A DNA stretch of 64,000 bases from a candidate division WOR-3 bacterium (GTDB lineage Bacteria > Hydrothermota > Tepidihabitantia > SM23-42). Below, in pieces: positions 4,566 to 64,000 of the stretch. The notes under the pieces were generated by a model, which was not told the DNA's origin, made no database searches, and saw only the letters and a list, made by a program, of their open reading frames with translations. The DNA lies in assembly GCA_029858255.1 (NCBI GenBank), contig JAOUFJ010000002.1, positions 138,637-202,636 on the forward strand, read 5' to 3'. Position 1 is the first letter of the stretch, and every line of letters starts with the position of its first letter. A program made the position numbers and the translations under genes.

Positions 4566-5732
4566 CTATTCCAATTCGTCGAGCCAGCCGGCTGTCGCTA
4601 CAAGCCTGCGTTTGAAGAATTTGCCCAGATTATCCGGGTCCTTAGCCTGATGGTATCTGAAGTACATGTAGCCATCCAGAAGACCCAATATCTCGATCTT
4701 CCCGGTTCTGTGAGACATGACGTATCTGAACCGCTTGCTTGGACCATCTAGCATCTTCTTCGCGTTCTCGACTACCTGCAGTCCTTTGTGAAGTAGCAGC
4801 TGAAAGTTGTGTTTCACACGCTTCACCGGTCGGCATTGGAATACATAGTACGGTTGTATACCCACCCTCAGTAATTCCTTCTGAAGGGCAGCCAGCACGT
4901 CTGGTGTATCGTTCACGCCTTTAAGGAGAACGGTCTGGTTGCTAACCGTAACCGAGGCACGCTCAAGAGCCTTAACCGCGGCTATGGTCTTCTCCGAAAT
5001 CTCACGGGGGTGATTTATATGCGCTACCACAATGATCCTCTTCTTACGTAGTGCATAATACCTGAACAATGCAATAAGGTGCTTATCCTGAAGAATCCTA
5101 TCTGGCAACGCGACTGTAATCTTTGTGCCAAACCTGATGAAATTGAGATGGTCGATAGCAGAGAGTTTCTGCAAGAAACGTTCAATAATATCCGTGGTAA
5201 GAATCAATGGATCGCCACCGCTTATCAAGACATTGGTGATCTCAGTATGCTTTTCAATATATTTTACCGCATCATTGAACCGTTTCAGTATTTCACCAGT
5301 TTCCAATCCGATCAACCTCTTCCTGAAACAATAACGGCAGTAGGTGGCACAGCGGTTTGTCGCGAGTATCAGTGCCGTCTGCGCATACTTGTGTTGAAGT
5401 CCAGGCATTTTTGTGTTGGACAACTCACCGCTTGTATCATACTGTCCAAGAAGATTGAACTCCTCGGCCGACGGCACGATCATCTTCCTTATCGGATCAT
5501 CAGGATCATTCCGATTAACGAGAGAAAGATAATGATGGGTGATACGCATGGGATGTCTCTCAATGACATCTGAGATCTGTCTTTTTTCCCGTTGAGAAAG
5601 TCTAAGGTGTCTATCCAAATGCTCCACACTTCGTACGCTTTCTCTTAGCTCGCGACGCCACACATCGTCGACAGGTATCTTCTCGCGGTTTGTATTTGCT
5701 CTAATCAATATGGTCACCTCATTTCCTGGCAT
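4566..5732 (-). CDS. KamA-family radical SAM aminomutase (lysine 2,3-aminomutase-like)
   Basis: 'CATYCRYCFRKR' CxxxCxxC radical-SAM motif in a KamA-like context; ~390 aa. Confidence 0.75.
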   Translation of the reverse strand: MPGNEVTILIRANTNREKIPVDDVWRRELRESVRSVEHLDRHLRLSQREKRQISDVIERHPMRITHHYLSLVNRNDPDDPIRKMIVPSAEEFNLLGQYDTSGELSNTKMPGLQHKYAQTALILATNRCATYCRYCFRKRLIGLETGEILKRFNDAVKYIEKHTEITNVLISGGDPLILTTDIIERFLQKLSAIDHLNFIRFGTKITVALPDRILQDKHLIALFRYYALRKKRIIVVAHINHPREISEKTIAAVKALERASVTVSNQTVLLKGVNDTPDVLAALQKELLRVGIQPYYVFQCRPVKRVKHNFQLLLHKGLQVVENAKKMLDGPSKRFRYVMSHRTGKIEILGLLDGYMYFRYHQAKDPDNLGKFFKRRLVATAGWLDELE

Positions 5733-5917
5733 ACTTACGCTCTATGATCCATACTAGTGCGAAAGAAATTTTACGTACGTTTATTATAAACAATATAAAG
5801 CATCGTGTCAATGCTCTAAAGCATTACATATTGACCAAATTATCAAATTGGGAGTGATATTATGCTACAGGACGTACATGTCCTTCAAAGTCGGGACGAC
5901 ATGCACTTGGATCACGG

Positions 5918-7906
5918 TCACGATCGGAAAGTCATCTCAAAAACAGTTCCAGTGTTCTTATGACTTGTTATGCTGATATTACCACCGTGATCCTTGATTA
6001 TTTTTTGTGCTATATACAAGCCCAGACCAGTTCCACTTTTCTTCGTGCTATAATATGGACTGAATACACGCTTTTTTTCTTCTTCGTCCATACCGATGCC
6101 GTTATCAGCGACAATGAGCCTTATTCCTCCTCGAGACCCGGTCAGACTGATATCAATTCTTGGTTTACGGTCCTTCACCGAACCCACCGCGTCGATGGCA
6201 TTCAGCACGATGTTCAAAATAGCCCTTCTAAAATCGTCCGGACTACCAACAAGATTTGTGTCAGTCTCAACGTTCTTCTTCATGTCTATGTTCTGCTCCC
6301 GAATATTGTTCTCTACCAACGGTTCCATATCCCTCAGAATCCCGGCAATGCTGAACGACGTCTTTTCTCTCATCCTTGGTCTTGCAAGCATCAAGAAATC
6401 ATTGACCGTTTTCGTAAGAACCTCTATCTCATGCTTCAGGCTCTCCGTAATGCGCATATAGTCAGCGTCCTCATTGGGAAATTCTTTGGTCAACCTCTGT
6501 ATTCCAATCGACAGACCGTTCAACGGGTTCTTTATCTCATGAGCGAGATTCGCTACCAGATTACCGAGGAAAACAAGCCGCTCTGCCTCTTCCCTCTCCC
6601 TCTCAAACTCCCGTATTTTCGTAACGTCGTGCAGTATGGTAATAGCTCCCGAAATTCTTTGTCGATCATCGAATAGCGGATATGCTGCATATCGGATGTC
6701 CCTGCCAAAAACCCGCTTCTCATCGGCGATCTTCTTGCCCTCCTTCATCACTTTTTCGATATCAAAAGGATCATCAGAGAATACTCTGTCATAGTTGTTA
6801 CCGACGAGGAAATCCTCACCGAAGGCAGACAGTGTGCAGAACATCTCGTTAACTGCACTGATCGCCTTCTTTTGGTCGATCAACAATACACCATCCTCTA
6901 CTGCTCCGAGGGTCTTATGGAACAGATCTTTGATATTTGCGTAAGATTGATAGTTCATCAGCCAGAGAATCAGAAAAAAACTCGCGCCGAATATGATCAC
7001 GAACAGAGCGATAAGCTGCCCTTCTGTCCTCCTAACATGCCGATAATAGCTATCGAGGCTTATCCCAATTCTGAAGATACCAACCATCTCGTCCTCGATG
7101 ATAAACGGGCGGACCAACTCAAGCACATTCTTATCATTGAATTCCTCGATGCGGCTGGTCTCAGTCCTGTTTTCAATAACCTTGACCAGCTCCGGATCAT
7201 CTTCAATCCTACTTATCGTCTCAACATTGGGCGTGGCAAATAATATGCCTTCGGTGTCCTGAAGCACAAGGTAATTCAACATCGGATTTGCCGCCATTTG
7301 ACTTATGATCTTATTAATACCATATTCAGTGCGAAATTCTTTGATACCCTCAGCGGGTAGTTCGATCTGATATATACGTTCGGTAATCACGTAAACAAAC
7401 CGCATGAGTGTTTCGTTCCCAACATCAAAATACTCAAAAGATATCGGCTCAGCTTGTTCGAATATTCTATCGCTGATAAGAAACGGCGTTCCCGAAGCCA
7501 TGATCATTTTTCTGGTGCTCCTACTGAACACCGCGACCGAGCGAAAACCAAAACTCAGTCTCACATTTGCGGTATTTGTTGTTGTCAGGTCGGCATCGAG
7601 CGCACTACAAGCGCCGATCAACTTATTGATGAGTTCATCCTCCAGGCGGGCTTCTGCAAAGATCAAATTCTCCTGGGTCGAGGCAATAACCGAGAGGAAG
7701 GAACGTGCCTGTTCTTTGATCAGATCGAGCATTATCCTTCGGCCACTAATCAAGCCGAGTGTCAAAAAAGTTCCAAGCAGCAATAGAAGTATAATTGCCA
7801 ACAAAAAATAACGCTTCATGCCTTTACCCATTTCCATTTCATAATAACCAAAAGATGCAATGAAGTCAACTAGATGTCTAGTAAGAACGCCTTGCAATTG
7901 CAGCAA
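5918..7906 (-). CDS. Sensor histidine kinase (extracytoplasmic sensor, PAS, HisKA, HATPase_c). The true start is probably the internal 'MKRYFLL' at about 7822.
   Basis: HisKA H-box 'LAHEIKNPLNG'. HATPase 'VADNGIGMDEEE...GTGLGL'. N-terminal TM helices. Confidence 0.75.
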   Translation of the reverse strand: MLQLQGVLTRHLVDFIASFGYYEMEMGKGMKRYFLLAIILLLLLGTFLTLGLISGRRIMLDLIKEQARSFLSVIASTQENLIFAEARLEDELINKLIGACSALDADLTTTNTANVRLSFGFRSVAVFSRSTRKMIMASGTPFLISDRIFEQAEPISFEYFDVGNETLMRFVYVITERIYQIELPAEGIKEFRTEYGINKIISQMAANPMLNYLVLQDTEGILFATPNVETISRIEDDPELVKVIENRTETSRIEEFNDKNVLELVRPFIIEDEMVGIFRIGISLDSYYRHVRRTEGQLIALFVIIFGASFFLILWLMNYQSYANIKDLFHKTLGAVEDGVLLIDQKKAISAVNEMFCTLSAFGEDFLVGNNYDRVFSDDPFDIEKVMKEGKKIADEKRVFGRDIRYAAYPLFDDRQRISGAITILHDVTKIREFEREREEAERLVFLGNLVANLAHEIKNPLNGLSIGIQRLTKEFPNEDADYMRITESLKHEIEVLTKTVNDFLMLARPRMREKTSFSIAGILRDMEPLVENNIREQNIDMKKNVETDTNLVGSPDDFRRAILNIVLNAIDAVGSVKDRKPRIDISLTGSRGGIRLIVADNGIGMDEEEKKRVFSPYYSTKKSGTGLGLYIAQKIIKDHGGNISITSHKNTGTVFEMTFRS

Positions 7907-18588: not shown

Positions 18589-18632
18589 AGTTTCGTTAAT
18601 CTCGTTAGTATCGTTATTCCCGTTGGAAAACC
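18589..18632. repeat. Family A intergenic repeat ('CGTTAATCTCGTTA...ATCGTTATTCCCG') inside a 540-bp gene-free convergent intergenic region
   Basis: Shares a 35-40 nt motif with 35779-35820 and 60204-60242. An inverted copy is at 60385-60420. Confidence 0.55.
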
Positions 18633-35778: not shown

Positions 35779-35820
35779 ACGTTAATTGCGTTACTTTCGT
35801 TAATCTCGTTAATTTCGTTT
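35779..35820. repeat. Family A repeat copy in the lysS / hypothetical divergent promoter region
   Basis: 'CGTTAATTGCGTTACTTTCGTTAATCTCGTTAATTTCGTT'. Confidence 0.5.
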
Positions 35821-43653: not shown

Positions 43654-45468
43654 ATGAAAAAAATACTTATTTTGTGCCTGCTGTTGACTGCAGTAGCATA
43701 TAGCAGTCAACGAACGGTTGTAGTCGAGGAATTCACGGCTACGACGTGACCATACTGTCCAGGTACGGCAAGAGGTCTTGCCGAAATATATCCCCGTGCT
43801 TATGATACATTGACGGTAATATCGTACCATGTATGGTCCAGTGACCCGTTCAACACTGCTGAAGCCGAAGCGCGTGAAGCTTACTATGGTATATCCGGAA
43901 CACCTACTACTTGGTTCGATGGGGCAATATCCGAGGTCGGCGGGCTAAACACGGGCACCATGTACCCGTTTTTCCGGCATCACGTGACAACACGCGCAGC
44001 AGTCGATAGTCCGTTGGAGATTACACTGACCTGTGATTACGATTCAACAACGAACCAGGGAAATATCGAAGCAACAGTAACCAACACCACTGGAAGTCCG
44101 GTGAGCGGAAACATACACTTTGCCCTTGTCGAGGACAATATTCCCTACAATTGGGGTGGCGGGATGACCGAACTCGATCAGGTAATGCGCGATATGATCC
44201 CCGATGCAACAGGTGAAGCGGTCACAGTACCAGCCTCGGATACGATCATGCGCTCGAGGGATTTCACCGTCCAGGCGAGCTGGAACGAAGTCAATTGTCG
44301 CATCATCGTCTTTGTCCAGGCGTCGAACCGTCTGATATACCAGGGAGCTGAGATATCCATCATCCCTGAATCTCAGATGGTGTACTATGGCATGACCGTG
44401 ACAGAGCTTACAGGTAATGGTAACGGTTACGGAGAACCAGGCGAAGAGATCGAAGTCACAGCCCATGCCAAGAACATGGGAAGCAGTGTGTACACGCTTC
44501 CGGTTACGGTGGAATGTACCGACCCGAATATCACCGTCACTTCCTCCTACGTCGACACTTTTGAAATAGAGCCGGGTGATGTGGACAATGTCATAACATG
44601 GACTTTTGATATCAGTGCGGCTTGTCCTGATCCGCACCTTGCAGAATTCAATCTTGTCTTCGGTGATGGAAACGAGTCAACGGTGCCTTATCTAGTGACA
44701 ACACAATCAGGATTCAGCGACGACATGGAGTCTGGCGAAGGAGAATGGACACACTCGGGGACTTACGACAATTGGCACCTGACCGAGCACAAGAGCAATT
44801 CTCCAACACATTCCTGGTACTGTGGCGTAGAGAACATCTGGCACTATCTGAACCAAAATGATCTTTCACTCGTGTCCCCATATTTCATTGTATCACAGGA
44901 TAGCATATTATCCTTTTATCACCAATACAACTTAGAAACGAACTGGGATTATACGTACGCGGAGATCGAGAACGGTTCGGGTTGGTGGCAGACCCTCGAC
45001 GAATACAACGGTCTTCAATCGACATGGTCACAGGAAGCGTTTTCTCTTGCCAGTTTACAAGGCCAGACCGTACGCGTGCGATTCAGACTCGTCAGTGATT
45101 ACAGCACCTACGCTGAAGGCTGGTACATTGATGATGTCTGGGTGTCCATGACAGGAATAAACGATCTGAACACTCCGGAGGAACTTAACGCCATTTCCCT
45201 GAGCGTATCTCCTACCCTATTCTCCAGGCAAACGACCATCAGCTTCGGCATCGAACAGAGCGCAGGACAGATAGCGCTCAAGATATACGACGCTGCAGGA
45301 CGCCTGGTAAAAGATTTTTCTTACACTATACCCAATGCCCCATGCGCTATGCAGATTAGTTGGGATGGTACAGACCAAACTAATCGAAAATTACCAAGTG
45401 GTGTCTATTTCATATCCATGCAAGACTCCAATAGCAAAATCGTCGAGAAAGCGGTCCTTCTGAAATAG
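43654..45468 (+). CDS. Exported thioredoxin-fold SELENOPROTEIN with T9SS C-terminal sorting domain. In-frame TGA (43747-43749) read as Sec in a 'T-U-P-Y-C-P' redox motif. Signal peptide at the N-terminus.
   Basis: ATG 43654 'MKKILILCLLLTAVAYSSQ', then 'RTVVVEEFTATT[TGA]PYCPG...YYGISGTPTTWFDG' (Trx beta1, then CxxC position, then cis-Pro loop). Same frame as ORF 43810..45468, which ends in a T9SS CTD ('ALKIYDAAGRLV...GVYFISMQD'). Confidence 0.7.
43766..43783 (+). promoter_or_regulatory. SECIS-like hairpin 17 nt downstream of the UGA of the Trx-like selenoprotein
   Basis: ACGGCAAG-AGGT-CTTGCCG. Loop contains G-U, about 24-27 nt from the UGA. Confidence 0.55.
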
Positions 45469-53451: not shown

Positions 53452-54827
53452 TTCCGCAGAAGATCAGTCTCAAGGAGTGGAGCAGACAGTTCCGTATGCT
53501 CGACGATTCGCAAATAAAAAAGTACAGGTATTACACTAATGATGAGTGGGGTCATTATCTGTCTCCGCCGGCAACGTTCATGGTCTACGGTGCCAGGGAA
53601 CTCAGAAAATTGAAATTCGACAATTCACTAGCCGCGCTCAGGCTCTGGGGGTTTACGCTCAATGAATCTGAAAGACTGTTCAGGGCGCGGCAGAGCGGTA
53701 AACGCATAATCGCAACAATGGGCGACCTTGGGACGATACCCGTTATCGCCATGGCGTTTCCTGACTGTATTCCGTTCTACCCCGACTGCACATGGTGGAC
53801 GCCGTTCTTCAACGAATCTACGGTGCTTCTCGATAAGGCGAGTGAACTCGGCACGCCCGAAGCCAGTTGTTTTGTACGTTCAACACTTGCTGCTTTTTAC
53901 AAAATGGCATACTTCCCAAAACCGGATCTGTTGTTTGCATCAACTGGCGCATCCTGCGATGATTACTCGTGTATCATGCAGATGGTTGCAGACCTCGGTT
54001 ATGAATTGAACTGGCTCGAAATCCCCTATCGCAGGAAATTGCGGGACTACCACGCGGAGGAAAAATATTCTGGAACAGAGCATGGTTTTCAATATCCCGA
54101 ACGTTTCGAAACATACTTGGTGAATGAATACAAGCGCGTCTGGCAAAAAATGCAGGCGCTGACCAATATTGGTGATCTCGAAAAACTCAGAGAAAGTATC
54201 AAAAAGAACAACAGACTGCGCCGATTGGTAGATGATATAAAAAACCTTACAACTGAGGCCGACACCGCACCATTTCCCGGTCTTGAGATGATGGTCATAG
54301 AATTCGGCAATCTATATGGCTACGCGGATACCGATGAATGGTTGGACATCCTGGAGATGATCAAAGAAACGGTCACCGGTCGTGTCAAAAAAGGAATCGG
54401 AGTCCTTCATTCGGATGCGATACCACTTGCGTGGGTCACCCCTACCGCAGACCCATTGCTGCTAAATATTGTTGAGGACATGGGCGGCCGTGTCGTGGCG
54501 ACCGAATATGTCATCAACCAGGCACTTACCGAGATCGAGGAAGATATCGAACCCTTCCGCGCCCTTGCCAGGTCGTTCATGAACGCCTCCCTCATCGGTT
54601 CAACCGAAGAGAGAATCCGTCATATTTCCGAAAACATTGCTTCCGGCAGGATCGCAGGAGTCATCATCACCAACATGTTGGGTTGTTCCCATTGTTCAAT
54701 GGAGACTAGGCTAATCGAACAAAATTTGAAAAACGTGCCCGTGCTCGCGATCGACATCCCTGCGCCACTGGGAATAACCGAACAGCTCAAGACACGAATC
54801 GCTGCCTTCATCGAGATGCTGAAATGA
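53436..54827 (+). CDS. HgdA/BcrB-like (2-hydroxyacyl-CoA dehydratase family) protein
   Basis: '...EQLKTRIAAFIEML' C-terminus. 463 aa. Confidence 0.65.
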   Translation: MFEDLIPQKISLKEWSRQFRMLDDSQIKKYRYYTNDEWGHYLSPPATFMVYGARELRKLKFDNSLAALRLWGFTLNESERLFRARQSGKRIIATMGDLGTIPVIAMAFPDCIPFYPDCTWWTPFFNESTVLLDKASELGTPEASCFVRSTLAAFYKMAYFPKPDLLFASTGASCDDYSCIMQMVADLGYELNWLEIPYRRKLRDYHAEEKYSGTEHGFQYPERFETYLVNEYKRVWQKMQALTNIGDLEKLRESIKKNNRLRRLVDDIKNLTTEADTAPFPGLEMMVIEFGNLYGYADTDEWLDILEMIKETVTGRVKKGIGVLHSDAIPLAWVTPTADPLLLNIVEDMGGRVVATEYVINQALTEIEEDIEPFRALARSFMNASLIGSTEERIRHISENIASGRIAGVIITNMLGCSHCSMETRLIEQNLKNVPVLAIDIPAPLGITEQLKTRIAAFIEMLK

Positions 54828-55855
54828 GCGATATTCTGACCCCACGTGAAAGATTTGGACTGCTGGTGATCGATGAAAAACCCGACCGCTGCAATACAAT
54901 ACCATTAATCACATCGCACGCCGCCACGGTCAAAGGTATGAAGCTCAGAGATTATTACACGAATGGTGAGAACATGGCGCGTGCGCAGATAGCAGCAATT
55001 GAAAAATACGGGCACGATGCGATATCAATTTTCTCAGAAGTAGGTATCATCGCTGAAGCAATGGGGACGGAATTCGAATATCCAGAGAACGACCTGCCGA
55101 TCCAGAGGATACCGGCCCTCCAGAAACAGGATATCGAAGAAATCGAGATACCGATCCCGACCTCAGATGCGAGACTCCCGGTGTATCTCGATGCGATTGA
55201 ATATGCTTACGACGCACTCGGCGACAGAATCCCCATACTGGCCTACATTCCTGCTCCATTCACGACCGGAATGATGCTCTCCGACCCGAACAAATTTCTC
55301 ATCCAAACAATCAAGGAACCGGATCATGTCGCGGCGGTCATGGAGAAATCCCTCGCAGCGGCAATCGAATTATGTTACCATGTCATAGATGTCGGTGGAC
55401 TGCCCATTATCGTTGATCCCCTTGCGTCGTCGAGCGTCATTAGCCCCAAAGCATATCAACAATACGCTCTCCCCTATGAAAGAAAACTCATCGATTTTCT
55501 ACACCGTTACGACCTCGATGTTATACTACATATTTGTGGAGACACTACGCCAATTATCCATATCCTTCCGGAGACGCACGCCGACCTTATCAGTATTGAC
55601 CGTGTGAGCCTAGCGGATACAATTGAAAAATTATCTATGAAAATTCGCGTGATCGGCAACTATGACACATCGCTGCTCGCCTTTTCATCCCCGGACGTCA
55701 TAGCACGCGAAGTAAAAGAAATGGTGAAGCTCTCGATGAATGCGCACAAGGGTTACATCGCAGCAACAGGCTGCGAGGTTCCCATCCACGCCCCTTTCGA
55801 AAACGTGACAGCTTTCATAAATGCAGCGAAGGAGAACGGATGGTATTGGGATTAG
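54824..55855 (+). CDS. Second URO-D-family (MtaA-like) methyltransferase
   Basis: Paralogous to 51536..52468. 'DPLASSSVISP' is shared between both. Confidence 0.65.
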   Translation: MSDILTPRERFGLLVIDEKPDRCNTIPLITSHAATVKGMKLRDYYTNGENMARAQIAAIEKYGHDAISIFSEVGIIAEAMGTEFEYPENDLPIQRIPALQKQDIEEIEIPIPTSDARLPVYLDAIEYAYDALGDRIPILAYIPAPFTTGMMLSDPNKFLIQTIKEPDHVAAVMEKSLAAAIELCYHVIDVGGLPIIVDPLASSSVISPKAYQQYALPYERKLIDFLHRYDLDVILHICGDTTPIIHILPETHADLISIDRVSLADTIEKLSMKIRVIGNYDTSLLAFSSPDVIAREVKEMVKLSMNAHKGYIAATGCEVPIHAPFENVTAFINAAKENGWYWD

Positions 55856-56562
55856 ACGTTGGGTCCAGCTACACAAAAGGAATTGTGTTTGACGGCCGGA
55901 TAAGGGACAAGATCGTTTTCAAAACATCATTCAAGCCAAAACTGGCGGTCGAGAGAGCACTGAATGAACTCCGAGGCTACGACAGCATAGTCGCTACTGG
56001 ATTCGGACGGGAGCTCGTCACGACGGCCGACAAGACGATAACGGAAATCACGGCATTTGCCAAAGGTGCATCTTATTTCGAACCTCAGCTTCGAACTATC
56101 ATCGATATCGGCGGGCAGGATAGCAAGATCATCAAAGTCAAAGATGGGCGCGTCGACCGATTTGTCATGAATGACCGCTGTGCGGCTGGGACCGGAAATT
56201 TCGTTGAGAAAATCGCGCAAGCCCTTGACCTAAGCCTGGCCGAATTCGGCGAGTTGGCCGTGCATGCAGACCGTGCTGAAATCATTGATTCACTTTGCGT
56301 GGTCATGGCCGAAACAGAGATTCTTAGTCTCGTTGGAGAAGGTAAACGGCTTGAAGACATCGTTGCCGGGGTGTGCGACGCGCTCGTTCGGCGAATCGAT
56401 GGTATAGGCAGCCAGATAGGCATTGAGGAACCAATATTGTTCTGCGGCGGCGGCGCCCTTAATCCCGGTCTTGTCAAATCGATGAGACGCATATTCAAGG
56501 AAGTCACCATTCCAGAGTATCCCCAATATGTCGGGGCAATTGGCGCTGCACTGTCGCTCTGA
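55840..56562 (+). CDS. Second HgdC/BcrAD-type ATP-dependent activase
   Basis: 'LGLDVGSSYTKG' and 'NDRCAAGTGNF'. ~240 aa. Confidence 0.75.
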   Translation: MVLGLDVGSSYTKGIVFDGRIRDKIVFKTSFKPKLAVERALNELRGYDSIVATGFGRELVTTADKTITEITAFAKGASYFEPQLRTIIDIGGQDSKIIKVKDGRVDRFVMNDRCAAGTGNFVEKIAQALDLSLAEFGELAVHADRAEIIDSLCVVMAETEILSLVGEGKRLEDIVAGVCDALVRRIDGIGSQIGIEEPILFCGGGALNPGLVKSMRRIFKEVTIPEYPQYVGAIGAALSL

Positions 56563-56657
56563 CAGAGTTCATCGATTGTCCGTGCATATGGACTGGAGAT
56601 AGACCATCATTTCCGACCCCAACCTTGACATCATTATACATATCACTATAATTTCAC

Positions 56658-58058
56658 GTGAAGGATGCCATGAAAACTAAAGAAATACTGAGAAATATTC
56701 CATCGGTGGATAAAATCCTTAACTGGGATGAAATAAAGGAATCTCTCAAAATCCTCAACCAAGACCATATAACCAGGATCATACGCGATAACGTAGAAAA
56801 CTACCGAAAACTTCTGATTGCCGGTGAAAAAATCGACGATAGTCGTTTGAAAAAAGCAATCTTAGCCGATATCCAGGATCTTATCACTCCCTATTTCTGC
56901 TATGCGGTCAATGCGCTCGGTATTGTTTTGCATACGGGATTGGGCCGTGCACCGTTTAACAAACACATTGCAGAAGTCATCCATGATATGTCCATGGGCT
57001 ATTCACGGTTGCAAATCGATGATGATGGAAAGCGGGCTGACCGCTACAAGAAGATCAATCGCTTGCTTCAGATCTTAACCGGGGCCGAAGCCGGGATCAT
57101 CGTCAACAACAACGCTGCCGCAACAATGCTCATCCTCAGTGCAATGGCAAAAGGCAAAGAGGTAATCGTGTCAAGGGGTCAACTCATTGAGATCGGTGGA
57201 GCATATCGTATTCCAGACATAATGGCGCAGAGCGGTGCGATAATGCACGAAATAGGCACAACCAATAGAACACATCTTAAGGACTATACAGGAGCAATAA
57301 ATGAGAACACAGGTGCGATACTGCGCGTGCACCAGTCAAACTACCGTATTATTGGCTTCACCAAAGAAGTCCCATTGGATGAGCTTGTCGAACTGGGGAG
57401 AAAACACAATATCCCGGTTATCGATGACCTGGGAAGCGGAGCGCTGATCGATTTTGCCGCATATGGACTGCCCAAAGAACCTATGGTACAAGAGAGCATC
57501 GCCACGGGAGCTGACGTAGTCTGTTTCAGCGGCGATAAACTGATCGGCGGACCACAATGCGGAATTATTATCGGTAAGAGGCAACATATAGAGTTAATAA
57601 AGAAAAACCCGCTTACCCGGGCGCTGAGATGCGATAAACTAACTAATGCTGCATTAGAAGCCACGCTTCAAATGTTTCTGCTCAAAGAGGAAGATTTAGT
57701 ATTAAATCACGCCGTTTTGGGCATTTTACTTAAACCATTAGATGAAATAAAATCTCGCGCGAAGCGTTGTGCGAGAGGTCTGAAAGCTGCATTTGGCAGC
57801 ATCCTCGAGGTATCTGTACGCTCGGGCGTCAGTGAGATTGGCGGAGGTTCACTCAGTACAGAACAGCTGCCCACCTATCTGGTGGCTATCAAATCACAAG
57901 ATATCGCGGCAAGCGATCTGGCACATGCCCTGCGGCGATACCAAACACCGGTTTTTACCAGGGTTGCCGAAGACAGTGTTCTCCTCGACTTCCGCACCGT
58001 TGTGAAGGGCGAGGAAAAGATAATACTTGAAGCCTTCAAGACAGTCCTCAAAATCTGA
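56658..58058 (+). CDS. selA: L-seryl-tRNA(Sec) selenium transferase
   Basis: 'IIVNNNAAATMLILSAMAKGKEVIVSRGQLIEIGGAYRIPD...HEIGTTNRTH...FSGDKLIGGPQCGII' aligns with SelA, including the PLP-lysine region. Confidence 0.9.
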   Translation: MKDAMKTKEILRNIPSVDKILNWDEIKESLKILNQDHITRIIRDNVENYRKLLIAGEKIDDSRLKKAILADIQDLITPYFCYAVNALGIVLHTGLGRAPFNKHIAEVIHDMSMGYSRLQIDDDGKRADRYKKINRLLQILTGAEAGIIVNNNAAATMLILSAMAKGKEVIVSRGQLIEIGGAYRIPDIMAQSGAIMHEIGTTNRTHLKDYTGAINENTGAILRVHQSNYRIIGFTKEVPLDELVELGRKHNIPVIDDLGSGALIDFAAYGLPKEPMVQESIATGADVVCFSGDKLIGGPQCGIIIGKRQHIELIKKNPLTRALRCDKLTNAALEATLQMFLLKEEDLVLNHAVLGILLKPLDEIKSRAKRCARGLKAAFGSILEVSVRSGVSEIGGGSLSTEQLPTYLVAIKSQDIAASDLAHALRRYQTPVFTRVAEDSVLLDFRTVVKGEEKIILEAFKTVLKI

Positions 58059-58061
58059 TCA

Positions 58062-58130
58062 TGTGTTTTGATCATTTGTATTTTACATTTTGGATTTGCT
58101 TAGTATTTAGATATTCGAATTTAGGATTTT
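58062..58130. repeat. Family B repeat, copy 4, in the selA-selB spacer
   Basis: 'TGTTTTGATCATTTGTATTTTACATTTTGGATTTGCTTAGTATTTAGATATTCGAATTTAGGATTTT', about 80% identical to copy 2. Confidence 0.65.
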
Positions 58131-58191
58131 CAGCAAACGGTCAGTATTATCTAATAATAACAACCGCGAGCAAGAACGAAGGAATCTGAAG

Positions 58192-60114
58192 GTGATGGAT
58201 ACGAGAAAGAAACACATCGTTATCGGTACCGCGGGACACATTGATCACGGAAAGAGCGCTTTGATAAAAGCACTCACCGGTGTCGACCCGGACCGGCTCA
58301 AGGAGGAGAAAGAGCGAGGTATGACCACAGACCTCGGCTTTGTTTTTTACAGCGCCGATGTAACTATCATCGACGTACCGGGTCATGAAAAATTCGTTCG
58401 GCATATGGTAGCCGGAGCATCGACTATTGACTTCGTGATCTTCGTGGTCGCCGCTGACGATGGAGTAATGCCACAAACGCACGAACACCTTGAGATTCTT
58501 AAACTACTCGGAATAAAAAAGGGTATCGTTGTAATTACAAAGAAAGACCTTGTTGAGAAAGACATGCTGGAAGTAGTAATAGACGATGTGAAGCGTGCCC
58601 TGACTAATTCTTTTCTGGAGAATGCGCCGATCATTAAGGTTTCAAATATCACCAAAGACGGTATCGAAGAACTCAGGAAATGCCTCGACGAGCTGATCAC
58701 TCAGATCGAGCCAAAAACCGACCGTGGTATATTCAGGATGCCTATTGACCGCCGGTTCGTGATAAAAGGATTTGGCACCGTGGTTGCGGGCACGGTTTTA
58801 TCAGGCAAAGTCAAAATAGGGGATACTGTCGAGCTACTACCCGAGAAAAAAAGTGTCAAAGTCAGGGGGATCGAAGTCCATAATGAAAAAGTAGATACCG
58901 TGGGCACTGGATTCCGCGCAGCCATCAACCTTGTAGGCGCTGACAAAGATGAGATCGACCGCGGTGATGTGCTCGCCCAGCCCGGTTTTTATGAACCATC
59001 GGAATACCTGAATGCATCTTTATACCTATTGTCTTCCGCTGGCAAGCCACTGAAGAATTTCAGCAGATTGCGGATACACGTCGGGACAAATGAAATATTC
59101 GGCCGCGTTGTGTTACTCGATAAAAAAACACTCGGACCAGGGCAAAAAGCAATGGTTCAGTTCAGATTGGAATCCCCGGCTGTCTGCGACATCAACGATA
59201 ATTACGTAATAAGATCCTATTCGCCACAAATGACCATTGGTGGCGGCCTCATAATCGAGCCCAAAGCGACAAAAGCAAAGGGGTTTGATGAGGAACTGAT
59301 CAGCCATTTGCAGCGCATGGAAGTCGGTGAACCCGTTGTGATCGTAGAAGAGGATCTATTGGCGAATTTCGATCTTCCAAGGAAACCCGAGGAAATCGCT
59401 CATGATGTTAACCTCCCCCTCGCAGAGACGAAAAACCTCATAGAAAATCTGATACAGCAGGGAAAGATAATATGTCTTGACGAAAAACGCGGGTTTTACT
59501 ATCACCAGAAGAACCATGAAAAACTGAAGGCGCAAATCGTCGAAAATCTTGGCACCTACCACAAGGCGAATCCGACCGGCGTCGGGCTTTCCGCCCTTGA
59601 ACTATTGAAGAATATCAGCCGCGGTCTCGATAAAGTTCTCCTGGACCGTACACTCGCAAAAATGGAAAAGGAGAAAATCGTACGCCTCACGCCAGACGGA
59701 AAGATCAATCTATTCGAGCACAAAGTAGTGGTCGACAAAGACCTCGATGCCACGATCAAAAAAATCGAGCAGCTCTTCATTGAAGGCGGCTATAAACCGC
59801 CCTCTTACCAGGATGTGGTTACCCGCAACCTAGATCCTGAGAACGTCGTAAAGAAAGCGTACCGTTATATGCTCGATACCGGGCTCCTGGTAAATGCCGG
59901 CGAGGGCATTGTCTTGCACCAGAATTATGTTAAAGCAGCAGAGCAAAAACTCATCGAATTCTTGAAGACAAATAAGGAAATAAGAGTCTCCCAGTTCCGC
60001 GACCTGCTCGATGCAAGCCGCAAGTTTGTCCTGCCGCTTCTGATATATTTCGACACGCGCGGTGTCACGATCAAACGAGGCGACGTAAGGGTGTTGGGAC
60101 AAAAATACCGCTAA
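58192..60114 (+). CDS. selB: Selenocysteine-specific elongation factor
   Basis: G-domain 'GTAGHIDHGKSAL', 'DVPGHEKF', 'TKKD'. ~640 aa with C-terminal winged-helix extension. Sits next to selA. Confidence 0.9.
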   Translation: MMDTRKKHIVIGTAGHIDHGKSALIKALTGVDPDRLKEEKERGMTTDLGFVFYSADVTIIDVPGHEKFVRHMVAGASTIDFVIFVVAADDGVMPQTHEHLEILKLLGIKKGIVVITKKDLVEKDMLEVVIDDVKRALTNSFLENAPIIKVSNITKDGIEELRKCLDELITQIEPKTDRGIFRMPIDRRFVIKGFGTVVAGTVLSGKVKIGDTVELLPEKKSVKVRGIEVHNEKVDTVGTGFRAAINLVGADKDEIDRGDVLAQPGFYEPSEYLNASLYLLSSAGKPLKNFSRLRIHVGTNEIFGRVVLLDKKTLGPGQKAMVQFRLESPAVCDINDNYVIRSYSPQMTIGGGLIIEPKATKAKGFDEELISHLQRMEVGEPVVIVEEDLLANFDLPRKPEEIAHDVNLPLAETKNLIENLIQQGKIICLDEKRGFYYHQKNHEKLKAQIVENLGTYHKANPTGVGLSALELLKNISRGLDKVLLDRTLAKMEKEKIVRLTPDGKINLFEHKVVVDKDLDATIKKIEQLFIEGGYKPPSYQDVVTRNLDPENVVKKAYRYMLDTGLLVNAGEGIVLHQNYVKAAEQKLIEFLKTNKEIRVSQFRDLLDASRKFVLPLLIYFDTRGVTIKRGDVRVLGQKYR

Positions 60115-60203
60115 CACTTCAGGTTGCGTACAACGAATAACGAAGTCCAGCATCATACGGTCACGAAACCCGTACAACGGTAATATCACACAGCACACGA
60201 GCA

Positions 60204-60420
60204 CGCCGTTAATCCCGTTATTATCGTTATTCCCGCTAACGACTTATACCTCTGCCCTCACGGCAAGAAACGAATATCTTCGATGGAGTATCTAAACACG
60301 AAATGCTGTTCTACCCTTATGAACAATTGGAACGAATACGATCTACGAACACGAATTACAAAGGCATATCGTAACGAAGCCACAACGATACTAGCGATAT
60401 TAACGATAATAACGAACAAA
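60204..60420. repeat. Family A repeat pair in inverted orientation (60204-60242 forward, 60385-60420 reverse) within the 360-bp selB-M48 intergenic region
   Basis: 'CGCCGTTAATCCCGTTATTATCGTTATTCCCGCTAACG' versus the reverse complement of 'TAGCGATATTAACGATAATAACGAAC'. Confidence 0.5.
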
Positions 60421-60474
60421 ACGTTTTCGTACCATTGGGTCTTGATTTCCCCGATTTATCCATTATAATTATGT

Positions 60475-61260
60475 ATGAAGAGGCTATTAATTGTACCCAT
60501 ATTGTTTGTTTTTATTATTAGCTGTGCCACCACCGGGCCTGGTGGTAAGAAAAGCTTGATCCTGATCCCGACCGATACAGAAGTCGAACTTGGCAAAGAA
60601 GTCGTAAAGGAAGTCGAGTCAACGGAAAAAATACTCAATAATTCGGAAGTTCAGAATTACGTCAGTAAAGTTGGACGCAAGGTTGCCAAAGTCTGCGATA
60701 GAAAGGACGTCACATACTCCTTCAAAGTACTCGATAACGAAGAAATAAACGCGTTTGCATGCCCTGGCGGTTTCATCTACATTTACAAAGGCTTGATGAA
60801 AAAAATGGATAATGAAGCACAGCTTGCTGCGGTCCTGGCTCACGAAGTTGGACATATTGTGGCAAGGCATTCAGTGAAAAGGCTCCAGGCAGCATACGGC
60901 TACAGCATCGTAATGGAAGTTGCTCTCGGCGAAAAAATGGGGCAAACAGCACGACAAATGGTCGACGCCGCAGCAGGAGTCATTCTGCTTGGTTATGGCA
61001 GAGATAATGAATACGAAGCTGATGATTACGGAATTCTGTATTCAAAGAAAGCTGGTTACAATCCGAAAGGGATGGTGCAGATTTTTGAGAAATTCAAACA
61101 AATGGAAGGACGTCCCCCCAATACCTTTGAGAAACTGTTGATGTCCCATCCACCTGCGGGCGACCGTATAAATAACGGAAATAAAGAAATACAGAAAATC
61201 GGCGGTACCAATCTTCCCTATTACGAAACCGAATACGCTGCGATAAAGGCGAAACTGTAA
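60475..61260 (+). CDS. M48-family zinc metallopeptidase lipoprotein
   Basis: Lipobox 'FIISC'. 'HEVGHIVARH' HExxH. Confidence 0.7.
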   Translation: MKRLLIVPILFVFIISCATTGPGGKKSLILIPTDTEVELGKEVVKEVESTEKILNNSEVQNYVSKVGRKVAKVCDRKDVTYSFKVLDNEEINAFACPGGFIYIYKGLMKKMDNEAQLAAVLAHEVGHIVARHSVKRLQAAYGYSIVMEVALGEKMGQTARQMVDAAAGVILLGYGRDNEYEADDYGILYSKKAGYNPKGMVQIFEKFKQMEGRPPNTFEKLLMSHPPAGDRINNGNKEIQKIGGTNLPYYETEYAAIKAKL

Positions 61261-61292
61261 GAAAGTCAGGTCATAGCGTGTAGTAAACAATC

Positions 61293-61706
61293 CTAAGCAT
61301 CTTCGGTCTTAGGCGTGGTCTTTGCTCTCTCCTCGAGTTTTCGCATGAGAGAATTAAGCATCTTCCCTACATCAGTGCACGTCTCAATCCACGGTTTCAC
61401 GATTTCGTTTTCCATACAATGACAATCGGCAAGTTTGATAAGCCAATTCTCTGTTTCTGCAGCACTGCAGTGCGCCGTTTCAAGGTATCGAACATATTTT
61501 CTGCGGCCCCTCGAATAGAATCCCTCAGCAATGCTCGCACTGATGTTCCCGGAGCTCCTCAGTAGCTGCTCAAGGATGATCCCAGCTGTTGTCGTCCGCG
61601 GCAGTTTGTCTATCGTATGGTATATCGACACGAATAGATCATGTGACTTCTGCCACACTCTCAGGTCTGTAAAATGCTTTATCGTTTTGTGCTCATTAGG
61701 TTCCAT
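61293..61706 (-). CDS. Four-helix-bundle protein (23S rRNA intervening-sequence-protein family). Start taken at the internal 'MEPNEHK'.
   Basis: Family-typical 'FTDLRVWQKSHDL...RSSGNISASIAEGFYSRGRRKYVRYLETAHCSAAETENWL'. Confidence 0.55.
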   Translation of the reverse strand: MEPNEHKTIKHFTDLRVWQKSHDLFVSIYHTIDKLPRTTTAGIILEQLLRSSGNISASIAEGFYSRGRRKYVRYLETAHCSAAETENWLIKLADCHCMENEIVKPWIETCTDVGKMLNSLMRKLEERAKTTPKTEDA

Positions 61707-61851
61707 AGTGTTTCCTCCTAATATTAATACAAGTTCCAGGAAGGTAATAACAACACTCGACCGTTGAGTGCTTTCCATACGGTATGGTTCTGTCCAATTT
61801 TAGGATTCGATGTGAGAAAATGAGTCTGTATTTGTGTTCTTAATAGAAGAG

Positions 61852-61945
61852 TGGCGGAGGCGTGTAGGAATCGAACCTACCGTCCCCCTTTCGAAGGACA
61901 TCCGGGTTTGAAGCCCGTCAGGCACACCAGCACCCATCCGCCTCC
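61852..61945 (-). tRNA. selC: tRNA-Sec (anticodon UCA), about 94 nt, CCA encoded
   Basis: Minus strand GGAGGCGG-A-TGGGTGCTGGTGTGCC-TGA-CGGG-CTTCAAA-CCCG-...-GTCC-TTCGAAAGG-GGAC-GG-TAGG-TTCGATT-CCTA-CA-CGCCTCC-G-CCA. Long acceptor, long variable arm, anticodon TCA. Confidence 0.85.
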
Positions 61946-62300
61946 ACGAAATTTCCCCAAATCTTTGATTTGGCTGGAAATTTCAGTGGCCTCGTTCCAA
62001 TCCTTCTGGAATGAGGCATCCTCAATCTTAAAACCCCAAATCTTTGATCTGCCTACAAATTTCAGTGGCCTCGTTCCAATCCTTCTGGAATGAGGCATCC
62101 TCAATCTTAAAACCCCAAATCTTTGATCTGCCTACAAATTTCAGTGGCCTCGTTCCAATCCTTCTGGAATGAGGCATCTTTAATTTCAATATCCCAAATC
62201 TTCGATCTGCCTACAAATTTCAGTGGCCTCGTTCCAATCCTTCTGGAATGAGGCATCTTTAATTTCAAAAATCCACCAAATTTCATATTTAGCTACAAAT
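61946..62300. repeat. Tandem direct repeat, 79-bp unit x about 4.4 copies, abutting the 5' end of selC. Each unit has a 10-bp hairpin.
   Basis: 'CAGTGGCCTCGTTCCAATCCTTCTGGAATGAGGCATC' recurs at 61984, 62063, 62142 and 62221. Inter-unit segments are near-identical. Confidence 0.8.
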
Positions 62301-62388
62301 TTTAACCTCCCAACCTCATCTAGGGACCGCTACTTGGATTCTACCGAAAATCGGGTATAAAGTCAAGATACGCAGTCGAAGAGTCACA

Positions 62389-63489
62389 TCACCTGCCCCA
62401 ACCGACGCCGAGCGGCACATATTGAACAGTCATGCCAAATACCCATTCTTTGCTGCCTGAAATGAAAACCCCTGGACTGAACGGCCCCAACTTAAGAATA
62501 CCGGGGTAAATGTTCAATCTAATCCTGTATTCTGGCGCCGTGGAGACCATAAGAGCAGCAAGAAGTGAATTGTTACGATCATAGAACACTCCCGCGCGCC
62601 AGGTCAGAACCGCAGTGAGCACCCTGCCCGTATCCTCTTGTGCTACTCTGACGAGATTCTCCACCAAGAAGCCGCCAGCGATGCTGAGAGCTTGTCCATC
62701 AACCCAGCGATGCGTGACCCCGAACATACCATGTAGACCGAAATGTGTCATCAAATGCCAGTTTTTTTCTTTCGTAAGGGGATATTTTGCGACATAAAAC
62801 TGTCCCATATTCTCAAGATTGCCGTTTCTGAGATTGATAACGGGCTGCATCGACCACTCGGCAAGGTTCAATTTCTCGGAGAAGAAACGACAAAGCCTAT
62901 CACTGGAAAAGAGCAGCATGCCGGCGGGATCAAAAATGAACAAATCCGCAAGATGATCTACGCTCAACTCTTCATTGCCTCTATTCTCAATGATCTCTGA
63001 TAGGGCATGATAAGCCAGCATCGTACCAACAGACCAGAGCCTCGGGACTCCGAATCCGTGATACCGGTACCACTCCTCTGTTGCCCGGAAGTGCATACCG
63101 CCACCTATCACATGCAGAAAATAGTTGGGAACCCATTGATTACCCCTCTCCTTAACTGTCAGAGGCAGAACCTCAGTGGATATGAAACGCCACCATCCAA
63201 AACCGTTTATCGTACGCAGCGGATGCCGCACGGTTTCCCACACGTTTCTACCCCATTCTCCGTAAGGATACGTAAAGATCATCCTATCGTACTCATCGTA
63301 TTTAGGAATTTGCAGAATACCATACCCACCGTTAATAATAACGTTCATGGGATTATAGTTCGCCTGTGTTCCGTAGGGCAATGCATGATAAAAAAAGTAT
63401 GGGATCGTATCACTTGTCGGAAATACGTCAGTCTTCCCCTGCTCGGCGGCAGGATGAGCGACCGATACCACCTGAGCAGATAGCAGCAA
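62389..63489 (-). CDS. Hypothetical exported protein
   Basis: Long ORF with hydrophobic N-terminus. No motif recognised. Confidence 0.35.
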   Translation of the reverse strand: MLLSAQVVSVAHPAAEQGKTDVFPTSDTIPYFFYHALPYGTQANYNPMNVIINGGYGILQIPKYDEYDRMIFTYPYGEWGRNVWETVRHPLRTINGFGWWRFISTEVLPLTVKERGNQWVPNYFLHVIGGGMHFRATEEWYRYHGFGVPRLWSVGTMLAYHALSEIIENRGNEELSVDHLADLFIFDPAGMLLFSSDRLCRFFSEKLNLAEWSMQPVINLRNGNLENMGQFYVAKYPLTKEKNWHLMTHFGLHGMFGVTHRWVDGQALSIAGGFLVENLVRVAQEDTGRVLTAVLTWRAGVFYDRNNSLLAALMVSTAPEYRIRLNIYPGILKLGPFSPGVFISGSKEWVFGMTVQYVPLGVGWGR

Positions 63490-63623
63490 TATAATACCCG
63501 GGAAAATTACCTTAATGTTGATTACTCATTCTACACGTTTTTAGTAATTGGTCAAGGGCATGGGTATGAGTTGACATGACGTAGCATAATGATTATCATT
63601 AGTCCGAATGAGGAGGCAAGAAA

Positions 63624-64000
63624 ATGCTCAGCCGATATAAGTCTATTTTTTTGATACTTAACATAAGCGCAATACTGGGATTTTCAATACCATCGATAAT
63701 CTTTGCCATGCCGGCGCAGCATCAAGTTGATGCACCTCACTCTTGCATAGTGGGCAGGGCACTGGAACATCCAAAGAACCTACGCGACTACACAATTGAG
63801 ACTTGCGCGATATTGATACAATTCAGCGACAACCCGGCTAACACAACCGAGCACTCGCCGGCAAGATATGACAGCATGTTCTTTTCAACCGGTGTCTACA
63901 ATGGTCAGTACCGCGTCGGTAGTTTGAATGACTTCTTCCTAGAAAATTCATATGGTACAACCGATGTTACGGGTGGCATTGCCGGAAATCAATGGCACAT
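63624..64000 (+). CDS. Exported protein, 3'-partial (runs off the window end). It is not in the ORF track.
   Basis: RBS AGGAGG then ATG. 'MLSRYKSIFLILNISAILGFSIPSIIFAMPA' signal-like N-terminus. Open to nt 64000. Confidence 0.4.
   Translation, partial: MLSRYKSIFLILNISAILGFSIPSIIFAMPAQHQVDAPHSCIVGRALEHPKNLRDYTIETCAILIQFSDNPANTTEHSPARYDSMFFSTGVYNGQYRVGSLNDFFLENSYGTTDVTGGIAGNQWH

Follow-up and report, generated by a model that had tools for sequence, protein, structure and literature searches.

What is a 79-bp tandem repeat doing directly in front of the gene for selenocysteine tRNA (tRNA-Sec, encoded by selC)? The question is raised by a 64,000-nucleotide stretch of contig JAOUFJ010000002.1 from a candidate division WOR-3 bacterium, here called the window, in which repeat units on the minus strand abut selC. 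Our preferred answer, held with moderate confidence and drawn from comparative sequence analysis, is that the array is a strain-specific, unstable amplification of a leader module, composed of two predicted RNA hairpins (A and B) and situated between a conserved promoter and selC, and that the hairpin B nearest the tRNA would act in cis.

The array and its promoter

Tandem Repeats Finder (TRF) reported a period of 79 bp at 61955-62257 (3.8 copies, 95% matches, score 529) and no other array scoring above 59 anywhere in the 64-kb window. The tRNA-Sec gene (anticodon UCA, CCA encoded) lies at 61852-61945 on the minus strand, as called by ARAGORN and by Rfam model RF01852 (75 bits against a gathering score of 47). 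Given the coordinates of the units and of the tRNA, repeat-derived sequence extends up to the tRNA 5' end, which bears out the first-pass annotation of a 79-bp repeat directly 5' of tRNA-Sec. A 30-nt core, GGCCTCGTTCCAATCCTTCTGGAATGAGGC, occurs exactly four times, against none expected, and nowhere else in the 64 kb. Core matches and unit comparison placed four identical 29-nt copies of hairpin A (GCCUCAUUCCA-GAAGGAU-UGGAACGAGGC; 11 pairs, 7-nt loop) on the minus strand, at 62226-62254 (copy 4, the first in the RNA), 62147-62175 (copy 3), 62068-62096 (copy 2, whose 79-nt unit is the same as that of copy 3) and 61989-62017 (copy 1, tRNA-proximal). Three internal linkers on the same strand (62186-62225, 62098-62146 and 62019-62067) carry a degenerate hairpin B, whereas an intact hairpin B occupies 61947-61985, beside the tRNA. 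At the far end of the array, 62255-62331 on the minus strand holds a degenerate promoter-proximal module, in which a weak hairpin is followed by UUAAAAUUUGUAG and a decayed hairpin B (11.4 bits with the hairpin B model, E about 4); a degenerate fifth unit, with 74% identity to the direct-repeat family, was found at 62276-62302.

The units are very alike. Their first 40 nt are the same in all four and their first 50 nt in three, and units 2 and 3 are identical across 79 nt, together forming a perfect tandem tract of 187 nt. Unit 4 carries seven differences, six of them within the last 17 nt of the unit. The segments between hairpins are 86-100% identical to each other (two are identical), and the earlier description of near-identical linkers is corrected in that the differences between units cluster in those last 17 nt.

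A promoter carried by each unit, or by the proximal unit, would suit an array that adjoins tRNA position +1, given that most bacterial tRNA leaders are short, and the first-pass annotation had placed the selC promoter within the repeat or iterated by it. However, a scan of 61946-62330 on both strands, with a threshold of at least 9/12 matches, returned no promoter-like site within the array. The predicted promoter of the leader-selC transcript was instead located upstream, at 62338-62366 on the minus strand, and is of the sigma70 type (-35 box TTGACT at 62366-62361, 17-nt spacer, -10 box TAGAAT at 62343-62338; 10/12 matches in the scan). It was conserved in ten of ten loci (the window and the related loci L001, L002, L003, L007, L008, L009, L011, L012 and L018), whatever their number of modules, in the form of CTTGACTT, a 16-18-nt spacer and a TAGAAT-type -10 box (variants TAGTAT, TACAAT and TAGACT), while tRNA position +1 lay anywhere from 135 to 392 nt beyond the -10 box. 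Hairpin B, moreover, covaries in structure and does not conserve hexamers. An iterated promoter is thus scarcely credible, and the conserved promoter upstream makes the array a predicted transcribed leader of ~390 nt instead. An opposite-strand cold-shock-domain gene is inserted between the upstream open reading frame (ORF) and the selC promoter in L002 (11149-11352) and L003 (9248-9451); since the promoter stays with the leader despite this insertion, it is to be assigned to selC, not to the ORF. The window's two other tRNA genes, with consensus promoters 15-30 nt upstream, lack both a leader of this kind and modules. Collectively, these comparisons show the array DNA to be part of a long predicted 5' leader of the selC primary transcript.

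In some relatives the spacer between the ORF and the promoter is enlarged and filled with repeated palindromes that end in GTAG/CTAC (such as GTAGTTGCCTGATTTATCAGGC and CCCAATGAATTGGGCAACTAC), at 5355-5380 and 5593-5617 of L012 and also in L011 and L009. These resemble repetitive extragenic palindromes (REPs) in appearance and are unrelated in sequence to the A-B module.

A two-hairpin module before selC and selA-selB

Homologues of the flanking ORF, together with exact matches to part of the tRNA, led to nine further distinct loci; the closest relative genomes are WOR-3 CP070802, CP070705 and CP070686. The module they share consists of hairpin A (11-13 bp), a 3-4-nt joint, the motif RCURAAWUYU, which is the 5' strand of hairpin B, and hairpin B itself. 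Such a module lies upstream of selC in nine of nine related loci, in one to six diverged copies per genome, which supports a tie between the array and selC. The closest relatives, L007 and L008/L017 (the latter with a flanking ORF 84% identical), each hold one copy of the window's hairpin A (GCCUCAUUCCA...UGGAACGAGGC) together with a degenerate promoter-proximal module. As to the suggestion that the same array be sought beside selC in relatives, the module is what recurs there, and it is single-copy in the nearest ones. The window's hairpin A stem is also single-copy in L002 and L012, and L001, L002, L003, L009, L011 and L012 carry two to six mutually diverged modules. L018 has an independent array in the same place (67 bp x 2.4, 93% matches), the units of which are a form of the module particular to that locus. 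The module is kept at the orthologous site among genomes whose flanking protein is 66-84% identical; at 60% protein identity or less, synteny with the upstream ORF is gone. Together, these findings show the 79-bp array to be a lineage-specific amplification of a leader module that, to judge by its sequence, is conserved and that the nearest relatives hold in one copy.

The tRNA-Sec sequence is identical in eight related loci. L012 differs by one compensated pair of the variable arm, where, in the tRNA at 5908-6001, the base of the arm has changed from GUCC...GGAC to AUCC...GGAU. Because hairpin A in the L012 leader retains CGGGAC, the leader has not followed the tRNA.

Across the ten loci, hairpin B comprises ten outer pairs including a closing U.G, a 2-nt 5' bulge, seven inner pairs and a loop of 3-5 nt; the copy next to the window's tRNA has the inner stem CCAAAUC/GAUUUGG, the loop AAA and 16 Watson-Crick pairs. 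It adjoins the tRNA in ten of ten loci, with its last pair at tRNA position -2, and in selC leaders it is followed by GU or GC and then by GGAGGCGG, the start of the tRNA. When the 12 intact copies were aligned, 9 of 17 pairs had changed on both sides and none on one side only, with 99.5% of cells paired, and addition of a thirteenth copy, from the locus L022 described below, gave the same picture (98.6-99.5% of cells paired overall). The observed values were not attained in any of 500 shuffles, and a one-column shift of the partner strand left at most 62% paired. The closing U.G, which pairs in the sense strand only, was invariant in all 13 copies. A covariance model built on hairpin B and run over ~200 kb matched only selC leaders and one L022 site; in the 64-kb window, with filters off, it found nothing outside the selC leader. 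Within the array the tRNA-proximal unit scored 74.5 bits (E 1e-17) and the three internal units 13-14 bits (E about 0.3-1.6), indicating that hairpin B has decayed in the internal units and that only the tRNA-proximal copy is intact. By virtue of compensatory change at an orthologous position, the A-B module, as predicted here, falls within the class of structured cis-acting RNA leader elements.

Stem lengths of hairpin A differ between modules, and we assessed it by per-module stem alignment and a chimeric-arm test. The 18 listed copies (17 distinct) comprise 190 Watson-Crick pairs, 26 wobble-type positions and four other mismatches. The upper stems take seven unrelated sequences, each complementary within its own module, and native combinations of arms scored 28.5 compared to 22.0 for chimeric ones, with overlap among similar modules.

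The same module was observed in a second context. The locus L022 (CP070664), whose SelB is 70% identical to that of the window, has no tRNA detectable within 13.9 kb, but the hairpin B model matched it at 2432-2478 (42.9 bits, E 1e-9). Here hairpin A and the motif GGGAUACUGAAUUUUG precede hairpin B, after which come GU and AGGAGG-N5-ATG, so that the module ends 2 nt before the Shine-Dalgarno (SD) sequence of the first gene of an HGD-D/BcrAD/selA/selB operon. Its stems contain further compensatory changes relative to the other copies and use sense G.U pairs. The 5' untranslated region (UTR) begins at a strong predicted promoter, TTGACA-16-TATGAT (11/12 matches), ~490 nt upstream and just after selD. 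Since hairpin B keeps the same 2-nt placement before tRNA-Sec and before the L022 SD sequence, the module is a portable element. Of Rfam's 4227 covariance models (E <= 1), only tRNA-Sec was found in the window region, L007, L011 and L018, and none matched in L022; a literature search for a selC leader or repeat returned nothing relevant. The A-B module is a previously undescribed predicted RNA structure, well supported by covariation and linked to both selC and selAB.

Two further features of L022 were noted. Its selD has an in-frame UGA at 954 (KCAG-U-ASK) followed by a hairpin resembling a selenocysteine insertion sequence (SECIS). Between selD and the module (1964-2400) are two similar irregular hairpins of ~65 nt, at 2018-2085 and 2172-2232, which start with GGAGGCA, end with AACCUCAA and have no Rfam match.

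Copy number, history and neighbourhood

How stable is the array? An independent assembly of the same strain, L019 (contig k141_223550, ENA ERZ27296335, 207 kb), is 100% identical to window positions 54695-63851 over 8,920 nt apart from a clean gap of exactly 237 bp (3 x 79). The missing zone falls within 61978-62257, its position being ambiguous over 43 nt, and it leaves one module in L019 compared to four in the window. In a search for further copy-number variants of this strain, L019 was the only other spanning contig in the index; a Logan contig from SRR7132115 also matches perfectly, over 7,187 nt, but ends inside the tRNA and is uninformative on the array. Copy-number variation, which the first-pass annotation had proposed to look for in reads, thus appears between assemblies as one unit against four, and the number is not reproducible; of the checks proposed there, those on relatives and on copy number proved informative.

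Could the four-copy array be an expansion introduced by the assembler, with a true copy number of one? The one-unit contig of the same strain argues in that direction, as do the 187-nt perfect tract of units 2 and 3, which exceeds the span of a short read, and the Logan contig that stops before the array. On the other hand, the internal linkers (GUAGGCAGAUC...GGGGUUUUAAGAUUGAGGAU, with a variant ending in GGGAUAUUGAAAUUAAAGAU) are absent from the one-unit allele, so that reads containing them must exist and the multi-unit allele is not an invention of the assembler; collapse of tandem repeats by assemblers is also far commoner than expansion, and L018 has an independent array at the same site. 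We consider an artefact of this kind unlikely, although the number of identical units is uncertain because of the perfect tract.

By inspection, the internal linkers are closer to the single promoter-proximal linker of L007 than to the first linker of the window, so the array has some depth and its latest duplication is very recent. Shortened copies, consisting of the 3' half of hairpin A plus the motif, stand at the starts of the L009 and L018 leaders, and the junctions in L009 and L011 (hairpin B-GU-GGA|CGCU...) show short homologies that include the first tRNA bases and indicate slippage. Units would accordingly be gained and lost via slippage or unequal recombination between repeated hairpins, which would make the locus behave as a variable-number tandem repeat (VNTR). 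That hairpin A is perfect in each of the four units may be due to recency, to gene conversion or to selection. As for an ultimate origin, hairpin A of a second class of modules is collinear with tRNA-Sec positions 39-68, which comprise the 3' anticodon-stem strand and the variable arm. The alignment has p about 0.005-0.02 per module, and none was obtained to the reverse complement or to tRNA-Leu and tRNA-Met as controls. An almost exact match to 14-16 nt of this region is present in the first modules of L007 and L018, while the window's own unit has no significant similarity to tRNA-Sec. The modules may, as a lead only, descend from a partial duplication of selC.

The minus-strand order around the array is a family-less ORF, the sigma70-type promoter, the array leader, selC and a four-helix-bundle gene. 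The upstream ORF (62389-63489, minus strand; 366 aa from TTG, with its stop codon 22 nt before the -35 box) had been described as convergent, but it runs in the same direction as selC. Its start is ambiguous, 360 aa being called in the public assembly; it has no Pfam, NCBIfam or PADLOC match, and its family is widely distributed, homologues in WOR-3, Edwardsbacteria, Bacteroidota and Ignavibacteriales numbering more than 300. The downstream four-helix-bundle gene (61293-61706, minus strand; PF05635/TIGR02436), whose product is weakly Avd-like, is syntenic in every selC-linked locus whose sequence runs past the tRNA. A promoter-like box, TTGTATTAAT, at 61723-61732, is found just before the ribosome-binding site of this gene in most loci (window, L001-L003, L008, L009, L012 and L018), in several with TTGTAA ~17 nt further upstream, and the gene probably has a promoter of its own.

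On the plus strand of the window are selA (56658-58058) and selB (58192-60114), followed by an M48 peptidase gene; the SelB encoded here is 100% identical to a protein assigned to candidate division WOR-3. The 360-bp selB-M48 intergenic region (60115-60474) is rich in ACGA/AACG words, and 9-bp tandem runs built on CGTTAAT/AACGA appear in TRF rows at 60206-60239, 60384-60415, 18593-18624 and 35780-35819; the word CGTTAATYY occurs six times in the whole window against 2.6 expected, with no clear enrichment. At 43654-45468 (plus strand) lies the gene of a candidate selenoprotein, with a UGA at 43747-43749; the predicted product is secreted and Omp28/thioredoxin-like, contains the motif T-U-P-Y-C and carries a secretion-sorting domain at its C terminus. 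A canonical SECIS hairpin, GGCAAG-AGGU-CUUGCC, begins 17 nt after the UGA, and gene callers would split the gene into two ORFs. Similar UxxC genes were found in L013/L014 (UGA at 2968) and twice in L003.

Proposed function and known systems

To our knowledge, E. coli is the one bacterium in which it is known how the level of tRNA-Sec is set against those of SelB and SelA, a SECIS-like element acting in its selAB leader, and control of selC itself is undescribed. With a covarying helix fixed 2 nt from tRNA-Sec, and in another lineage at the same distance from the ribosome-binding site of selA-selB, the locus is a concrete case in which candidate coordinated control or processing could be tested in a phylum without cultured members. 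We propose that the functional core would be the tRNA-proximal A-B pair and that hairpin B would act in cis on the RNA starting 2 nt downstream. It might be an RNase III-like processing or 5'-end-defining signal, in which case cleavage would remove the leader, so that RNase P would act on a short stub or, in L022, a short 5' UTR would remain. Alternatively, it might be an operator whose RNA-binding factor, once bound, blocks RNase P or the ribosome. Either version would gate the maturation of tRNA-Sec by RNase P and, in L022, ribosome access to the SD sequence of the selA-selB operon. The extra copies are probably neutral or weakly modulatory by-products of slippage, and the array itself is probably an inconsequential and possibly a mis-assembled amplification; if its extra copies are neutral, it is an ordinary VNTR and interest is limited to the proximal module.

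Several observations weigh against this reading. All loci were reached through a sel locus, an ascertainment bias because of which specificity for the selenocysteine pathway is not proven. The one-unit contig L019 could be a true variant or a MEGAHIT collapse. Hairpin B has no G.U intermediates, which is unusual for a constraint on RNA alone, and its fit is equal on both strands because its pairs are all Watson-Crick. The wobble-type positions of hairpin A comprise 20 A.C/C.A in the sense strand against only six sense G.U, its summed minimum free energy is -307 kcal/mol antisense compared to -259 kcal/mol sense, and the antisense form is the more stable in 14 of 17 modules. This bias would fit a plus-strand RNA or a hairpin at the DNA level. 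The first-pass annotation had already pointed to the plus strand, and its observation stands: hairpin A folds better there in the window (-18.6 against -14.2 kcal/mol, one pair being G.U in place of A.C), and in relatives too.

Does the array then encode a functional plus-strand RNA, plus-strand terminators or structures of single-stranded DNA? Two window copies are indeed terminator-like on the plus strand, but just two of the four pass the scan, and U-rich tails are absent in relatives (L001, L007, L008, L012 and L018), for which reasons we rejected an intrinsic terminator. Nor did the window scan find a plus-strand promoter, and no antisense promoter is conserved downstream of selC in relatives, where the conserved box is that of the four-helix-bundle gene. 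Of the 20 biased positions, ten trace to a single inherited C.A in position 2 of the stem, which would also fit descent from tRNA sequence. Promoter orientation, the sense-only U.G in 13 of 13 hairpin B copies, the lack of a conserved antisense promoter and L022, where the module precedes a same-strand gene and contains sense G.U pairs, lean toward transcription of the selC strand without settling it, and we give a plus-strand function only a small chance. We rate similarly low the idea that the leader acts in trans once released by RNase P, as a protein or small-RNA sponge (CsrB/RsmZ-like or tRNA-spacer-like) or as a type III antitoxin-like RNA. The leader is repetitive and hairpin-rich, its hairpin A is perfect in all four units, GGA is present in the hairpin A loop (GAAGGAU) of the window, L001, L002 and L007, and tRNA-transcript spacers are described as sponges in the published literature. 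The loops are not conserved, however: GGA is missing from L008, and the loops of deeper relatives are UUU or UUC, which led us to discard CsrA-type GGA loops. Several genomes hold one module, neither adjacent gene matches a toxin or defence model, and the feature that is strictly conserved, the position of hairpin B beside the downstream RNA, points to action in cis.

A canonical SECIS mimic that binds SelB through hairpin A or B would account for the linkage to selC and for a distance to the SD sequence of selA-selB in L022 that is nearly that of the E. coli SECIS-like element. We find it very improbable nonetheless, in that three SECIS elements of the clade are short hairpins 17-19 nt after the UGA with G-U loops (AGGU, GUU, AGUUA), whereas the loops of hairpin B are AAA, GAA, GAUA, UAU and similar, those of hairpin A vary freely, and G-U is not conserved. 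Hardly more probable is a generic dispersed palindrome, of the REP/bacterial interspersed mosaic element type or a miniature inverted-repeat transposable element, piled up beside selC. The module is an imperfect GC-rich palindrome, sometimes with GTAG or CAG before it, and other GTAG-type palindromes exist in L009, L011 and L012. Yet no further copy was found in the 64-kb window (filters off) or in ~140 kb of related loci outside the leaders, the L022 5' UTR excepted; all copies are direct repeats in a fixed position relative to the tRNA, and the module persists at the orthologous site across the 66-84% range of flanking-protein identity. Two minor candidates were also rejected. A leader peptide or small ORF in the units is contradicted by the 79-bp period, which shifts the frame, by loop indels in relatives that are not multiples of three and by compensation in the stems; and a 7-nt complementarity between the window's hairpin A loop and the tRNA-Sec variable arm is lost in relatives and was taken, by inspection, as chance. 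Beyond the cis-acting leader that we prefer lies a more ambitious proposal, which we judge doubtful: the A-B module may be a cis-regulatory RNA of the selenocysteine pathway in WOR-3 bacteria, an operator for SelB (bound in a non-canonical way), SelA, another protein or a specific nuclease that couples tRNA-Sec maturation to selAB expression, with expansion and contraction of the array tuning tRNA-Sec supply within populations. If so, the module would correspond in function to the SECIS-like element of E. coli selAB.

Repression of selAB in E. coli is exerted by a hairpin that binds SelB and is located 3 nt ahead of the selA SD sequence (PMC13449736). The likeness is a hairpin 2-3 nt upstream of the functional start of an RNA of the selenocysteine pathway, the gap being 2 nt in L022 and 3 nt in E. 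coli. Unlike that element, hairpin B has no conserved G-U loop, stands before a tRNA in the window, is accompanied by a second hairpin and has been tandemly amplified. RNase III sites, such as those in T7 early mRNA and rRNA stems, are Watson-Crick stems of ~16-20 bp with a small bulge or internal loop, located just upstream of the SD sequence or stable RNA whose 5' end they define. Hairpin B resembles them as a Watson-Crick stem of ~16 bp with a small bulge directly before a tRNA or SD sequence; with 16 bp and one U.G it is at the short end for RNase III, and cleavage here would be an extrapolation. Spacers of tRNA operons offer another parallel, a non-tRNA part of a tRNA primary transcript under selection. 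The leuZ 3' external transcribed spacer reportedly acts as a sponge for small RNAs; it is trans-acting by base pairing and unrepeated, whereas in the selC leader helices are conserved and not single-stranded seeds.

The array also invites comparison with two families of repeat loci in which it does not belong. Like an array of clustered regularly interspaced short palindromic repeats (CRISPR), it has a regularly spaced hairpin repeat of ~40 nt with ~39 nt between repeats, and on the selC strand the repeat ends in ...CACUGAAAU, which resembles the AUUGAAAC type of CRISPR repeat end. We rejected this identity, as the would-be spacers are copies of each other, the repeats differ between modules in relatives and the array is fused to a tRNA; the two adjacent genes, the only genes of the window scanned for cas families, have no PADLOC defence match. 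A tandem series of short structured RNA units that follows a promoter and precedes other genes also recalls ToxI-type antitoxins, a candidate that was set aside given that no ToxN/CptN/TenpN-like neighbour or PADLOC match is present and that the units are followed by tRNA-Sec and then by the TIGR02436 gene with a probable promoter of its own.

A further analogy for the array as a repeat is with VNTRs and contingency loci, in that unit number differs among close genomes and apparently within one strain, and the repeat lies between promoter and gene. It differs from them in having a structured 79-bp unit as opposed to the classical phase-variation tracts of 1-10 bp, and no phenotype switch is known. 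Copy number differs between assemblies of one strain, and the region is likely to be mis-assembled, which is a practical concern. The locus also illustrates clearly how a structured leader evolves in nature as its modules are repeatedly duplicated, decay and are lost. Collectively, the array and its module combine the class of structured cis-acting leaders with the behavior of a VNTR.

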